This document shows, piece after piece, positions 31,817 to 40,279 of a DNA stretch of 64,000 nt (positions are counted from its first letter, which is position 1; each line of letters begins with the position of its first letter). This DNA is from Paramecium tetraurelia. Its lineage: Eukaryota. The translations under genes and the position numbers were made by a program. The notes under the pieces are model-generated. The model ran no database searches. It worked only from the letters and a program-made list of their open reading frames with translations, and was not told where the DNA came from. The DNA is taken from positions 372,001 to 436,000 of the forward strand of contig CT868263.1 in NCBI GenBank assembly GCA_000165425.1. The letters run 5' to 3'.

Positions 31817-31927
31817 TCATTAATGAACGTGATGCCGAAGAATTGCATTGGGTTTATTAATTTGATATTTGGTTCTTCTACTGTGTTTCTGTGAGAGTGT
31901 CGATGTTGTAGTGTGATAAGATTTCAT
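31817..31927 (-). CDS. Possible 36-aa microprotein
   Basis: MKSYHTTTSTLSQKHSRRTKYQINKPNAILRHHVHQ*; less AT-rich than its flanks. Confidence 0.3.
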
Positions 31928-31976
31928 TTTAGATTTAAGAATGCGATTATATGGAATAAATTTATATAATTTAAGA

Positions 31977-34900
31977 ATGGAACGTAAACTCTACTTCGGG
32001 ACTACACAACAATTGTAAAATAAGCAATACTAATATCCAACTAATTTTATACGGACAAGCAGGTATTCATTAATTCATATTTGAGGTACAATATGATAAC
32101 CTTCCTACCATATTCCTTAGCATTGCAATTCTAAAGGATGGCAAACATCTATTTTCTTATTATTGCTATCTTGTCTTTTTTTAAATCCATTTCCCCATTT
32201 AGCCCTATAAATTCTATTGCACCTTTGCTCTTTGTGGTGTCCTTGTCCATGTTAAGAGATGGATATGAAGATTATCAAAAACATCTTAGTGACAATGAAT
32301 TGAATTCATCTCCCACTACCATTTGGACTAGTGGGGGTTTTGTGAAGAAAACATGGAAAGATGTACTCATGGGAGATATAATAAAAATTGATGAATTGGA
32401 AATAATCTCTGCTGACATAGTGGTGTTATAAACCTCTTAAGACGGGATCTGTTTTATCGAAACCTCCTCTTTGGATGGGGAGAAGAATTTGAAACCGAAA
32501 CAAGCAGTCAAAGAGACCTAAACTATGGAATGCAGAGAAGGAGTTATTGAATGTATAAATCCGAATGCTTTGCTTTACAATTTCGATGGAACACTCTTTT
32601 TGGAGAGCAAGAAAATTCAATTAACACATAAGAACTTTTTATTGAGAGGATCAAAATTGAAAAATGTTAAATGGGCCATAGGAGTTGTGGTTTATACTGG
32701 AATAGACACAAAAGTAATGAGGAATTCCGAGAAGCAGAAAAACAAAATGAGCAACATAGACAGATTGATTAATGTCAGAATTATTTATATCTTGATTATG
32801 CAGACATTTTCTTGCCTAATTTTAGCAATTATCTATGGAATTAATTGCGACATTCATAACATAAATTTTGATTACTTTAGTAGAAGCTTTGCTGGCTATA
32901 CATCTTATAATGGAGATGATGATATCTATGATCCAGACATCCCTAATTGTGCTTTGGCTTCATTGATGACCTTTGCAGCCTATTTCCTACTTTTAAACAC
33001 TCTTATACCAATAAGTCTAATAGTATCTTTGGAATTTGTAAAAGTAGGTTAGGGAATATTTATGTAAAAGGATAGGGAAATGTACACTGCTGAAAATGAT
33101 AAGTATGTCAAAGTGTTTAGTACGACTATTAACGAGGAATTGGGGTAGGTTCAATATGTATTTTCAGATAAAACAGGTACTTTAACTTGTAACAAAATGG
33201 AATTCAAATTATCTGTCTGTGGAAATGAAACTTATGGAGATGTATCCATGTTTGATAAGCATGAAATGAGCACTTTTGTAGGTAATTAGATCATAAGAAG
33301 ACAGAGCACTTTGCATTCTAGAAGATCCACAGTTGTTAATGAAAAAGCTGGCATTGAATATACATTCTCTGGTGCAGTCATTTAATCGATCATTACTGAA
33401 ACTGATCCTATGAAGAATCCTAATATAGGTCTTAATGTGGATACCTATTTGATCAGAAATCAAGGAGATTTAGTCAAGGAAAACCTTATGTTGCTAGCCA
33501 CTTGTCATGAGTGTGTTCTTGAATTTTAAGATGATGGCACATTTAATTATCAAGGACCATCTCCAGATGAAATAGCATTAGTGGATGCTGCTAGAAGGTT
33601 AAACATAGTCTATAGAGGGATTACAATGGGTATGATGGAAGTAGATGTGCTTGGGGTTAAGGAAAAGGTTGAACTTCTGTTTTCCTTTGAATTTAATAGT
33701 GATAGAAAGAGAATGTCTGTAATCATTAAGCACAAGGGTGTGATTAAACTATATACTAAAGGCGCTGATGCAATTATCAAATAAAGATTGGGTCCGAATC
33801 AACCATTTCTAGCTGGGATTGATAAAAAATTGGATATGTTCTCAAGGAAGGGATTGAGAACTCTATGCTTAGCTATGAGAGTTCTTGATGAGAAATAATT
33901 CAATGAATTTTCATAAGCTATGAATGATACTCTCGGTGGGAATGACGCTGAAAAATAGTAAACTGAATTAATTAATAAAATTGAACAGAATCTTACACTC
34001 ATTGGAGCTACGGCTGTTGAGGATAAATTATAAGACGATGTTCCAGAAACATTAGCAGATTTTCTTAAAGCAAATATTAATGTGTGGATGTTGACTGGAG
34101 ATAAGTTGGAAACAGCTGAAAATATTGGCAGATCCTGTAATTTGCTATAAGAGTAAATGGATGTTTTCTTTTTAACTCCTGGTTGTGATATCCTATAAAT
34201 ATTTAATAGAATCGCAGATCATGTTATATAGAAACCTACTACTAAAAGAGCTATGATTATAGAAGGTATTGTATTGGCTGTTCTGAGTGAAAATGAAAAT
34301 CTAACTAAATATTTAGTTTTGTTAGCTCCTCATCTTCATACAGTTATTTGTTGTAGGGTAACTCCAAAACAAAAAGCAGATATGGTTAGATTAGTTAAGA
34401 ATGAATTAGGAAAGATTACTCTGGCAGTTGGAGATGGTGCTAATGATGTTAATATGATTTAGGAGGCACATATTGGTATTGGGATTTATGGTCAAGAAGG
34501 TATGAGAGCTGTTTAAGCTAGTAATTATGCTATTGGTGAATTTAAATGTCTTTGGAAATTAGTGTTATTTCATGGAAGATAGAACTACATTCGTATTTCT
34601 GAAATGATTTTATACTTCTTTTACAAAAATATCATATTCACTGTCCCTCAATTCTATTTTGCCTTCTTTTGTGGATTAACTGGAACCAGTGTGTTTGATG
34701 AATTGTATTATTTCTTATCATTTAACCTAGCTTTGTCTCATTTTACAACACAGTGTTTACATTCCTACCTGTGGTCATAAGAGCCATTTTTGATGAAGAT
34801 GTTTTCTATACACAATAAAGAAAGGAAACATTATTAGGCAGCAAAAGAATTACATAAGGAGTAGAGGAGAATGACATACTCAAATAAAGTTATCCATTGC

Positions 34901-35605
34901 TTTATTACATTGGACAAAAAAACACTATATTTACAAACGAAAAGTAATTAATGGGTTTATTATATATAGATTTTTTAAATGGTTTTCAATTGGAATTTTC
35001 TAAGGATTGGCATGCTTCTTTTCGTTTTACCTAGAATTAAATGATACTACTTTCATTAAACAATCTGGATATAACAATGATTTATGGTTCTTTAGTATGT
35101 CAATGTCTACTGCCATCATGATAGTAATCAATTAATTAATTATTAGCTAGTCACATTAAAACTAGCTTTGAATACTCAATTTTGGACAATCATAACATGG
35201 ATTGCCTATTTAGGAACCAGTCTAGGTACTTACTTTGCTTATATGTGGATATCCAACATTATACCTTCAGCTGCCATCTTTGGAACTACTTAGATGCTAT
35301 TTTCAAGCTATGCGTTTTATCTTAGTCTGGCATTATCTGTATTATCAATGTTTATTCTTGATTTATTGATGTTCACTATCAAGACATCAAAGGACACTTT
35401 ACTTAACTATATGAAAAGATAAGCTAGATAAAATTAACAATTAGATATCGCTAAAATATCCAAGTTAGAGAAAAAACTATAAGAACAAATTTCAGAAATG
35501 GAAATGCCTGGATTTGAATTGTTTCAAAAAAGAAGTTTGGTTGATTCTAGTTTCTCATTAAGTGATAATACTTCAAAAGATGGAGATAGAAAGGATAATT
35601 AATGA
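31977..35605 (+). CDS. P4-type ATPase (phospholipid flippase)
   Basis: [89 protein letters not shown]. Confidence 0.97.
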
Positions 35606-37609: not shown

Positions 37610-37928
37610 ATGGCAGATCAATCATAGGCAGAATATTTGAACTTAAAAGTGAAATCCTAAGATGGTGAAGAGGTTTTCTTTAAAATCAAAAAATAAACTC
37701 AATTTAAGAAGTTGATGGATGCCTATTGTTCTAGGCAAAATGTATTATGAAGTGATTAATTTAGCTCCAAATCTAAAATGTTAGATTTTTATTTGATGGA
37801 GAAAGAATTTTGGAGACCTAAACACCAGCAGATGTATAATGTATTCCGTTATCTATTAGATTGGAATGGAAACTGGAGATGAGATTGATGTTGTAATTGA
37901 ATAAGTTGGTGGATATAAAATAATGTGA
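37610..37928 (+). CDS. SUMO: SUMO precursor
   Basis: [43 protein letters not shown]...VRFLFDGERI...EIDVVIEQVGG|YKIM*; 2 introns. Confidence 0.97.
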
Positions 37929-37959: not shown

Positions 37960-40279
37960 ATGCTTACCATCTTTCTCTTCCTAGTTTTTTAGGTTAATTG
38001 TGGAGATATTTAATTGTATAACTAATACGGATCCATCCTTTAGGATAAAATTTTAGTACACTCAATATACATATAATAGATTATTACTAAAAATGGATAG
38101 ATTTACAATTATGATCTAAAGTTCTAATAGATTCTTTGGGTATCATAATTAGGGATCTCTCTTCAATCCGAGAATGTCAAAAACTCTACACACTACTTAC
38201 AAACTTATAGAGATGGCACATACTTACTTTACGATGATTTCCTATATGTAATTCTACAAACTAACTTAGGAAATAGAACAAGATGATATTAATCTATTGT
38301 TTAGCACTTGTAACATGTTTAAAAATTCCCTTGTTTTCAATAATAATCTGGCATTTTTTATGGATATAACAACAGGAAATTTAAAAAAACTAAATCAATT
38401 CGATGTGCAGTAGATTTTAAAGAAACCTAAACTTTACCAATAAGGAGTTCTAATCAATGTATAACAATAGTATATTTCTCATTTGGAATATGAATTCTCT
38501 CAGTTTTATAATTCTAGAGTCTATATTAATTTCTTATTGCAATAAATTCGAAGTAACTAAACATTTAAATCACATTCGAATACTACTCAAATATGGAAAA
38601 CTTAGAATGGAATTTACGTCAAATGGAACAACAAAACCTTTGATTTATATTTAGATAATGAGGTGTTTCAAGTCTTTGCATATGATAATTTAGATGGATT
38701 ATAATCTTTACCAATATACAGAGATCAAATAGAATCAAAAAGTTTAGCAATAATATCAATTTCAAATAGCAACTTTTAATGCGAACAAGATGGATAATGT
38801 TTGCAAACTGATTTTAAACCTACAACGGCTCTAGGTATCTACAAAGAGACAGAATTAAAATAGTGTTTAAATGAATTCTATTATGCAAAGGCCTCAAAAT
38901 TACCTATGGTTTATCAATAAAATACTCCTTAAACCATAGAATAATGCTTTGAGATTCACAATGATGATGGATCTTTCGCGATGATATTGCTGACTATAAT
39001 TGTTATTGGGTCTGCTTTATTGACAAGATTTAAATTTAAAAAGCAAAAGCAGAACTTTTAGATAAATGTTAAGGAATCAAATATAGAATTAAAATATATT
39101 TAATAGAATTAAATCTAATTCAATGAATTGGAAATCATAGGATAAGGTTCGAATGGAACCAATATTCACGAGGGTTTTTTTTAAAACAAAACAGTTGCTG
39201 TTAAAGATATAAATTTATTGAATATATCCTAAAGTATGCTCAGTGGTGAATTAGAGAAATCATTTGCTCAATAAATGTCTTTAACTTCTGAAAAATTTAT
39301 AAAACTATATTTCTATGAAAAAAGAAATAATCACTTATATTTAGCTATGGAAAAAGGTTTAATTAATTTAAAAGATTTTGTAAAATATGATTCTTGTAAT
39401 AAATTAAATGATTCACTCAAAATCAAAATAAAATAAAACCTTTTAGACCCTAATTTTTATAAGTCGTTTATACATAATTTATTAATTGGACTTTAAGAAC
39501 TAGAAGAAAAACAAATTAAACATCATGGATTAGATCAAGAAAATATCATATTTAATCAAGACCTGCAAGTGTACTTTGCTGATCTTGGAATGTCTTAGAG
39601 AGCTGATTATTATAGAAGTAAGACTAAATCAACTAACTCTCATTTCTTCCATAGTTATAATTTGAAGTAATAATTAGGAGCAATATTTTACTATTTACTA
39701 TCAAGAGGAGATGATCTTAAAAATTTATCCTAAATAAATCTTAAGGCTATTTTGAATAAATTTAAGAAATACAACATCAAAGAATTAGATATTAGAGACT
39801 TGACTCTGAAATTGCTTTTTGATGGGCCAATAATTGATTATGATAATCTACTTTCGCACCCTTACTTTTGGACAAAAGAAAGAAAACTAAAGTTTATTTG
39901 TGAATTTAGCGATTATATCGAAACCTTCCCATAAAAACCAGGTTAAATTACTTTATAGGAGATCTGCATTTAAAACTAAGTTTTTAAAGATAATTGGGGC
40001 AATAAATGCGAAATACTTTTAAAAGAACAAATTCGAGGATATGATAAGACCTAAGCCTTATAGTTGATAAGAGTATAAAATTAATATTATAATTAATAGC
40101 TTATTCGTAATACTAAGAATCATTACCATTAGCTTACAAAGAATAGTAAATAGTTATTAGGAAATTCTGATAGAGACTTATTTGATTATTGGAATAAAAA
40201 CTTTCCAAATTTATTCTTTACTCTTTACTAATATTCATGTGAAAATAACTTCAACTTATTAAGTATTAAATAAAATTGA
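37960..40279 (+). CDS. IRE1: IRE1-like membrane protein: signal peptide, luminal domain, TM, pseudokinase, KEN RNase
   Basis: IIGQGSNGT...VAVK, HHGLDQEN, ADLG, LLSHPYFWTKERKLKFICEFSD, GYDKTQALQLIRLIRNTKNHY, FPNL; 2 introns. Confidence 0.85.

Follow-up and report, generated by a model that had tools for sequence, protein, structure and literature searches.

A Paramecium tetraurelia IRE1 ortholog that combines a degenerate kinase domain with an apparently intact KEN RNase domain

IRE1 (ERN1; Ire1p in yeast, IRE1alpha in human) is built, in this order, from a signal peptide, a lumenal domain, one transmembrane (TM) helix, a kinase fold and a KEN (kinase-extension nuclease, HEPN) domain. Its trans-autophosphorylation normally couples sensing to both the activation and the shut-off of the RNase. 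As described in the commentary PMC3082173, phosphotransfer can be bypassed for RNase activation, by engineered mutants and by ATP-competitive ligands, and is needed for proper shut-off. The same commentary describes the yeast mutant Ire1(D797N,K799N) (Rubio et al. 2011), which transfers no phosphate, yet oligomerises and cleaves HAC1 mRNA, and fails to switch off normally. RNase L, the second system close to the present one, is described there as having neither kinase activity nor a recognisable activation segment (PMC3082173). Canonical ATP binding is reported for it, with ATP acting to promote the RNase (PMC4718504).

Here we describe a gene in a stretch of 64,000 nucleotides of Paramecium tetraurelia DNA (assembly GCA_000165425.1, contig CT868263.1, positions 372,001 to 436,000 of the forward strand). 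This whole stretch is called the window below, and all coordinates refer to it. The gene, GSPATT00012822001, occupies 37960..40279 on the plus strand, from start to stop codon. To judge from its sequence, it is the P. tetraurelia IRE1 ortholog by descent, departing from the enzymology of the family rather than being a standard member. A literature search, in which few subscription journals were covered, found no paper on an IRE1 pseudokinase or an IRE1 substrate in Paramecium or any other ciliate.

Descent, architecture and fold

The C-terminal part of the protein was recognised by Pfam as Ribonuc_2-5A (PF06479) with an E value of 1.1e-15 and 58.3 bits, against a cut-off of 23.3. The Pfam Pkinase model matched with an E value of 2e-9, spanning only profile positions 2–159 of 263 and thus reaching no further than the DFG region. 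The best solved relatives were yeast and mammalian IRE1 (yeast IRE1, 3fbv, E 3.1e-18). Matches of this strength, together with 748 open codons, are not expected by chance. When a profile was made of five proteins from the P. aurelia species complex, it matched IRE1 kinase-RNase chains in a single continuous stretch, with E values from 7.7e-34 to 4.9e-27; RNase L was not among the 60 matches listed for this profile, IRE1 being by far the better match in sequence.

All parts of an IRE1 protein follow each other on the plus strand in the expected order. The signal-peptide-like N-terminus, MLTIFLFLVFQVNC (37960–38001), is a hydrophobic run judged by eye. The lumenal domain (residues 15–323; 38002..38974) is split by introns 1 and 2. 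The TM helix FAMILLTIIVIGSALL (residues 324–339; 38975..39022) was read from the sequence and is followed by the basic stretch RFKFKKQK, from which the topology was deduced by the positive-inside rule. The pseudokinase domain (residues 372–617; 39119..39856) comes next, and the KEN domain (residues 618–748; 39857..40276), interrupted by intron 3, completes the chain.

The T-x-x-G...W, DG and D..TG motifs of the lumenal part align with those of IRE1 lumenal domains. As this part is intron-split in P. tetraurelia, residues 1–323 of the P. octaurelia ortholog (91% identity over the domain) were used for the AlphaFold2 (AF2) model. The model has a predicted local distance difference test (pLDDT) score of 59.5 and suggests, with moderate confidence, an IRE1/PERK-type fold. 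Its top match in Foldseek was the human IRE1 lumenal domain (6shc, E 1.3e-6), and PERK lumenal domains, IRE1beta and the core lumenal domain (cLD) of yeast Ire1 were also found. Of the first 10 rows, nine carried the name of an IRE1 or PERK lumenal domain; beta-propellers, which are unrelated, came in only from an E value of about 7e-3.

For the cytosolic part, 390 residues were modelled from a 74-row alignment of the IRE1 family, comprising the query with six further Paramecium proteins and 67 selected others, with the tandem Rumex protein P0011 omitted. The model has a pLDDT of 90.0 and a predicted template modelling score (pTM) of 0.89. Its sole weak stretch, residues 171–190 (10-residue block means of 64 and 62), is the remnant of the activation segment. 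In VIA-align, the model superposed on yeast Ire1 (3fbv) with a Z score of 30.0 and a root-mean-square deviation (rmsd) of 3.4 Å for 356 residues over both domains, at 24% identity. The values for RNase L were a Z score of 26.0 and an rmsd of 4.7 Å for 337 residues, at 18% identity. Ordinary kinases reached Z scores of 21.9 or less and matched the kinase part only.

Taken by descent, architecture and fold, as far as alignments and models can tell, the protein is an IRE1 and not an RNase L. It has a KEN domain with the catalytic Tyr and R-N-x3-H, a kinase fold fused directly upstream and, with moderate confidence, a lumenal IRE1/PERK fold and a single TM helix. It falls in a clade with the IRE1 of P. 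bursaria, and its nearest solved chains are those of IRE1. A competent kinase is the one hallmark of the family that it appears to lack. The ankyrin-repeat 2-5A sensor of RNase L is also absent (no Pfam ankyrin match); a lumenal domain and TM helix take its place, whereas RNase L is cytosolic. A preliminary description, made from the letters of the window alone, had proposed a membrane-bound IRE1 homolog in which the kinase is dead and the KEN site intact, and this proposal is supported by Pfam, by the alignment to 3fbv, by the column counts given below and by the AF2 model with its VIA-align comparison. The same description called the kinase 'RNase L-style'. That holds as an analogy, in that residues for phosphotransfer and an activation/P+1 segment are missing here; the sequence and the fold are those of IRE1 (Z 30.0 against 26.0).

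RNase L shares with the Paramecium protein a kinase fold without phosphotransfer or a recognisable activation segment, joined to a KEN domain that looks active, and its nucleotide-binding residues are described as kept (PMC4718504). Since the pseudokinase of RNase L arose separately, we regard this resemblance, on the evidence of alignment and model, as convergent and partial: it is a likeness in function, which does not demonstrate that the pseudokinase state was inherited from a shared ancestor. In the catalytic loop of RNase L the Asp is retained (HQD), and DFD stands where DFG is usual.

The kinase and RNase domains across the family

In the kinase domain, the elements for phosphotransfer and substrate handling are lost by alignment, and most residues that contact the nucleotide are retained. 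The Gly-rich loop GQGSNGT (39140..39160) is kept, as is VAVK with the β3 Lys (39194..39205). Each of the three Gly-loop positions is Gly in 69–72 of the 74 aligned rows, and the query has Gly at all three. The β3 Lys column is K in 73/74 rows, the DFG Asp column D in 72/74 and the catalytic-loop Asn column N in 74/74, and the query conforms to each of them.

The catalytic loop reads HHGLDQEN (39521..39544) where HRDxKxxN is expected. It aligns without gaps to yeast HRDLKPQN, such that the Asp is replaced by Gly and the Lys by Asp, while the Asn is kept. The catalytic Asp column is D in 66/74 rows; the exceptions are Gly in six (all the aurelia rows) and Asn in two (Antonospora P0287 and Tanacetum P0045). 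The Lys column is K in 66/74, Asp in four rows (paralog group A, see below), Thr in two (group B), Arg in P. bursaria and Ala in Antonospora. DFG reads DLG (39581..39589), with the Asp kept and the Phe lost. It is followed by an activation-segment remnant of 28 residues (39590..39673), identified from the alignment and coinciding with the lowest-confidence part of the model. The aurelia proteins have no GTxGWxAPE/P+1 segment, and none precedes QLGAIFYY in the query. The αF Asp is missing as well (QQLG as compared to D-x-F-S-LG). Counted from the alignment, the stretch from DLG/DFG to LG measures 28 residues in the query, 38 in P. bursaria and 41 in Stentor. A kinase of this make-up, to judge by its residues, cannot transfer phosphate. 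Because the catalytic elements are lost, trans-autophosphorylation would be impossible here. The preliminary description had read the retained GQGSNGT and VAVK, the HHGLDQEN loop, the DLG and the absence of GTxGWxAPE before QLGAIFYY from the letters, and every one of these readings was borne out.

A counterpart of this loop is the engineered yeast Ire1(D797N,K799N) (Rubio et al. 2011, summarised in PMC3082173), which is disabled at both of these catalytic-loop positions but retains the residues that bind nucleotide. Unlike that mutant, the form seen in Paramecium occurs naturally and has become fixed in a species complex, and the activation segment is gone too.

The KEN endoribonuclease looks intact and, by its residues, catalytically equipped. 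Its catalytic Tyr (40040..40042) aligns with yeast Y1043. The stretch R-N-T-K-N-H (40106–40123) keeps the HEPN Arg, Asn and His, aligned with yeast R1056, N1057 and H1061; the yeast numbers were mapped from the gapless alignment to 3fbv and the numbering in PMC8104961. Across the family, the Tyr is found in 73/74 rows and the Arg, Asn and His in 74/74 each. Both the retained Tyr...RN..H and a Thr at the position of human K907 had been noted in the preliminary description and were confirmed. The K907 column is K in 61/74 rows and T in 6/74 (the six aurelia rows); in all, a residue other than Lys is found in 13/74.

At the RNase-RNase interface, the query has K/E/K at yeast positions 988/992/1059. 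With D/E at Sc992 and K/R at Sc1059, it is like the RIDD-only Ire1 of S. pombe (RIDD, regulated IRE1-dependent decay). S. pombe Ire1 has an active kinase. Li et al. 2021 (PMC8104961) describe D/E at Sc992 with K/R at Sc1059 as an 'S. pombe-like' pattern that is RIDD-enabled and promiscuous, and say that it holds for the vast majority of species.

The altered catalytic loop is shared within the P. aurelia complex. HHG is present in 9/9 of the aurelia-complex genes seen, which come from five species and fall into two old paralog groups. Group A (HHGLD.EN with DLG) was found in tetraurelia, octaurelia, primaurelia, pentaurelia and sonneborni, and group B (HHGITPDN with DFG) in tetraurelia, octaurelia, pentaurelia and sonneborni. 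The groups are ~51% identical to each other, and at most one copy of each was seen per species. The β3 Lys, the catalytic-loop Asn and the DFG Asp are kept in 9/9 genes. As both groups carry the shortened activation region, the kinase loss would predate the A/B duplication.

The IRE1 of P. bursaria (P0009) reads HRDIRPDN, DFG, GSIGWRAREV and SDVFSLG. On this reading it is essentially canonical, but has Arg for the catalytic-loop Lys. It also has ARE for APE, and these two changes may mark an early stage of relaxation within Paramecium. The catalytic loop of Stentor reads HRDIKPMN. A FastTree built from the 74 rows recovers Paramecium as monophyletic, with a long stem from the bursaria split to the aurelia clade, and group A sits on a longer branch than group B. 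Since all nine aurelia genes seen have HHG while P. bursaria keeps HRD, DFG and GW..RE, the loss appears lineage-specific and conserved.

Among group A orthologs, the KEN domain is the best conserved. Between tetraurelia and octaurelia, primaurelia and sonneborni, respectively, its identities are 95/90/75%, compared with 90/69/69% in the kinase N-lobe, 87/77/64% in the kinase C-lobe and 91/79/69% in the lumenal domain. Between groups A and B, the corresponding values are 67% (KEN), 53% (N-lobe), 43% (C-lobe) and 50% (lumenal).

Loss of the kinase in the IRE1 family appears, from the alignment, to be rare but not unique. A replaced catalytic-loop Asp together with an intact KEN R-N-x3-H is also seen in Antonospora locustae P0287 (VYNNIAPDN), in the partial Tanacetum coccineum P0045 (HGNLKPDN) and in Rumex salicifolius P0011 (HEITPEN/HGDISPQN). 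These are unrelated lineages with different substitutions, whereas Paramecium has the full lumenal sensor, the state fixed in both paralogs, and in P. bursaria a canonical-looking sister lineage that dates the aurelia kinase loss. The Rumex protein, a tandem of two kinase-KEN units with no lumenal domain, is the best non-Paramecium match of the query (E 3.7e-34). No publication was found on the degenerate IRE1-like proteins of Antonospora, Tanacetum or Rumex.

Protein searches, which were not genome-wide, found two IRE1 homologs in P. tetraurelia, namely this gene and the HHG paralog. A homolog search with the alignment as the query returned mostly generic kinases and three KEN-bearing proteins, all from Paramecium. 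The search of representatives at E ≤ 1e-30 gave two matches, P. sonneborni P0006 and the Rumex protein; it missed the P. bursaria protein and is thus incomplete. Metagenomes were scanned for related loci from intermediate Paramecium lineages, and of the 379 stretches that matched none was confirmed. A degenerate DNA pattern for PNLFFTLYQ located 24 metagenomic loci, and 0/24 encode an IRE1 (tblastn, codes 1 and 6).

Gene model, expression and neighbouring genes

The gene begins at ATG 37960 and ends at TGA 40277–40279. The spliced coding sequence is 2247 nt and encodes 748 aa in four exons in the ciliate code. The window is AT-rich (about 21–33% GC), and the frame of the gene is open only when TAA and TAG are read as Gln; all 748 codons are then open, and TGA is the sole stop. 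The introns were inferred by comparison with the P. octaurelia ortholog (P0004, 748 aa), to which the spliced protein aligns without gaps at 90.1% identity.

Exon 1 (residues 1–32; 37960..38055) and exon 2 (residues 33–88, lumenal domain; 38080..38247) are separated by intron 1, which measures 24 nt (38056..38079). Intron 2 (38248..38269) measures 22 nt and shifts the frame. Exon 3 (residues 89–689; 38270..40072) contains the remaining lumenal domain, the TM helix, the pseudokinase and the first part of the KEN domain. Intron 3 (40073..40099) measures 27 nt, is in frame, and is absent from the annotated P. tetraurelia protein. Exon 4 (residues 690–748 and the stop; 40100..40279) carries R-N-T-K-N-H. 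All three introns are GT..AG and all lie on the plus strand. Contigs of run X3 that span 37968–39333 and 39324–40177 lack exactly the 24, 22 and 27 bases of the three introns. The RNA origin of this run is not on record, and the simplest reading of its contigs is that they derive from spliced mRNA. The preliminary description had placed both ends of the gene exactly and read it as near-continuous; the three short introns, which it had missed, were found through the P. octaurelia ortholog and the X3 contigs. Its KEN translation had run through the in-frame intron 3, adding nine spurious residues between LQLIR and LIRNTKNHY and leaving the motifs unaffected.

The public annotation lists GSPATT00012822001 merely as an uncharacterised or 'protein kinase domain-containing' protein. 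From EIEQDD to the C-terminus, 660 aa of our model are identical to the public protein (A0D2P7, P0003). The public model (719 aa) begins at an out-of-frame ATG at 38093 and misses exons 1 and 2. As a result, it has 59 incorrect residues at its beginning and contains neither the signal peptide nor the start of the lumenal domain. The 748-aa model is backed by orthologs in four other species and by the X3 contigs, and the public gene model needs an N-terminal correction.

RNA sequencing was examined in three oligo-dT runs, X20–X22, using about a third to two fifths of each. Coverage over the gene was sparse in all three (0–6x per bin). The first mates all lay on the minus strand, with zero on the plus strand, in 3/3 runs, which is consistent with a plus-strand transcript in a standard stranded library. 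The gene is therefore transcribed, if weakly, and is no dead copy. A pseudogene reading was rejected in view of the open frame, the precise splicing, the expression and the conservation.

Immediately upstream, at about 37756–37927 on the plus strand, lies a gene that looks by eye like SUMO or another ubiquitin-like protein (...FLFDGERI..TPAD..., ending in GDEIDVVIEQVGGYKIM and the stop). Loose read ends suggest that it has a 26-nt intron at about 37834–37859. It is very highly expressed, with 80–106x in X20 as compared to 0–6x for the IRE1 gene, and its transcripts stop about 30–50 nt short of the IRE1 start codon. At 37874 and 37880, most reads of 3/3 RNA-seq runs and the X3 contig have C for T, and the consensus of the loose ends also differs at 37860. 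These differences probably reflect a near-identical paralog or a strain difference rather than editing. Further upstream, at 31895–35605 (plus strand), long open frames contain the P-type ATPase motifs DKTGTLT and GDGANDV and resemble a P4-type phospholipid flippase.

A possible mode of action and what it would mean

We think it probable that the P. tetraurelia IRE1 ortholog is a type I membrane protein of the endoplasmic reticulum (ER), with a pseudokinase and a catalytically equipped KEN domain, and that it works along the following lines. The lumenal domain, whose fold is assigned with moderate confidence, would sense unfolded protein or the release of a chaperone, and dimerise or oligomerise in response. 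The pseudokinase, unable by its residues to transfer phosphate, would serve as a scaffold for back-to-back dimerisation and may bind nucleotide. The dimer would then assemble the KEN active site, and RNA would be cleaved at the ER surface. The most likely targets would be ER-bound mRNAs, in a RIDD-like manner; alternatively, the target may be the mRNA of a transcription factor. Because there would be no autophosphorylation, another route of attenuation would be needed, and switch-off would occur by means other than the kinase-dependent attenuation of yeast.

The preliminary description had envisaged activation that is independent of phosphorylation and triggered from the lumen, which by analogy is a reasonable inference. 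Kinase-independent activation is plausible because the yeast D797N,K799N mutant, altered at the same two positions, and RNase L still work. The pseudokinase is probably still stabilised by a bound nucleotide, given that the Gly loop, the β3 Lys, the catalytic-loop Asn and the DFG Asp are kept in the aurelia copies. Such a nucleotide may stabilise an active-like fold, as is described for RNase L (PMC4718504). A role in defence, also put forward in the preliminary description, found no support.

Several observations weigh against the proposed mode of action. In the KEN domain, a Thr replaces the Lys that matches human K907, although a Lys is the next residue along. The K907A mutation inactivates the RNase of human IRE1. 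The interface pattern discriminates little and hints only weakly at mRNA decay as the output. The lumenal model is of low confidence (pLDDT 59.5) and was built on the P. octaurelia ortholog. In the kinase domain, the αC Glu is misaligned: the aurelia proteins have Ser where P. bursaria has Glu, with Glu residues two and four positions upstream, and nucleotide binding is uncertain for this reason. The third Gly-loop Gly is Lys in P. primaurelia and P. pentaurelia. The kinase domain has also diverged quickly relative to KEN. Eight A-versus-B pairs have kinase identities of 0.45–0.47 at KEN identities of 65–67%, whereas 51 canonical pairs with KEN identities of 0.6–0.7 have a median of 0.59 (range 0.46–0.74). 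Finally, a third, kinase-active IRE1 paralog in P. tetraurelia is possible.

The rival reading that survives best differs from the proposed mode of action in one step: the pseudokinase would be a pure scaffold that binds no nucleotide, and KEN activation would come solely from lumenal clustering. The misaligned αC Glu, the Lys at the third Gly-loop position in two species and the Leu in place of the DFG Phe in group A all fit such a protein, and so does the faster evolution of the domain relative to KEN when compared with canonical kinases. The β3 Lys, catalytic-loop Asn and DFG Asp, however, are kept throughout the nine aurelia genes despite the loss of neighbouring catalytic residues, which would be odd if the pocket were unused. 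At KEN identities of 0.7–0.8, three aurelia pairs have kinase identities of 0.65–0.66, as compared to a median of 0.71 (range 0.58–0.82) for 12 canonical pairs. By these identities, constraint on the kinase fold is relaxed and not abolished, so that the pseudokinase, measured against KEN, changes faster than canonical kinases but not neutrally. Relaxed but persisting constraint is what is expected if an enzyme became a scaffold. Altogether we regard a scaffold without nucleotide as a minority reading, with perhaps one chance in a handful.

Much less probable is an atypical but active kinase, in which phosphate would be transferred by a non-canonical arrangement, for example with another acidic residue as the base. 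The nucleotide-binding residues are kept, and group A has an Asp two residues past the lost catalytic Asp (HHGLD). This Asp was rejected as a substitute catalytic base, as group B (HHGITPDN) does not have it; furthermore, the activation segment, P+1/APE and the αF Asp are gone in both groups, and the match to the Pfam kinase model stops at the DFG region. We give the least credence of all to a non-catalytic regulator or decaying duplicate with another paralog as the real sensor: the low expression (0–6x in bins), the longer branch of group A and the chance of further paralogs beyond the protein searches would suit it, but both paralog groups share the kinase losses and the intact KEN residues, no domain is better conserved than KEN (95/90/75% between group A orthologs), 748 codons are open with three introns precisely removed in the X3 contigs (RNA origin not on record), and the protein searches turned up no IRE1 homologs in P. 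tetraurelia other than this gene and its HHG paralog.

The proposed luminally triggered, phosphorylation-independent RNase is thus the reading we favour. The preliminary description had said that canonical orthologs, together with a copy that evolves neutrally or is unexpressed, would count against it. A canonical HRD/DFG and GW..RE are indeed found in P. bursaria; the copy itself is spliced and expressed, five species conserve it, and a second HHG group stands beside it.

In a broader sense, the entire P. aurelia complex may run its IRE1 branch without IRE1 kinase activity, both surviving paralogs having been pseudokinases since before their duplication, with P. bursaria keeping the HRD Asp and DFG; we see the balance for this wider statement as even. 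In a kinome survey, PEK/PERK is among the families recorded as missing from ciliates and IRE is not (PMC3218828), and IRE1 may be the only kinase-type ER stress sensor that ciliates have. If the wider statement is true, Paramecium would offer an independent, membrane-bound repeat of the transition from IRE1 to RNase L. It would also be a natural counterpart of yeast D797N/K799N, and would imply that IRE1 can be switched off independently of its kinase. For RNase L, the commentary asks which was lost first, the kinase activity or the activation segment (PMC3082173).

The role of the IRE1 kinase has long been debated, and this gene would let nature answer whether IRE1 can do without it. Paramecium is a genetically tractable ciliate in which RNAi by feeding is a routine technique. 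P. bursaria (HRD Asp, DFG and GW..RE, with the Lys already Arg), group B (HHG, DFG) and group A (HHG, DLG) form a natural series. Such a series could show how an ER stress sensor acts and is attenuated without autophosphorylation, and what the targets of IRE1 in ciliates are.

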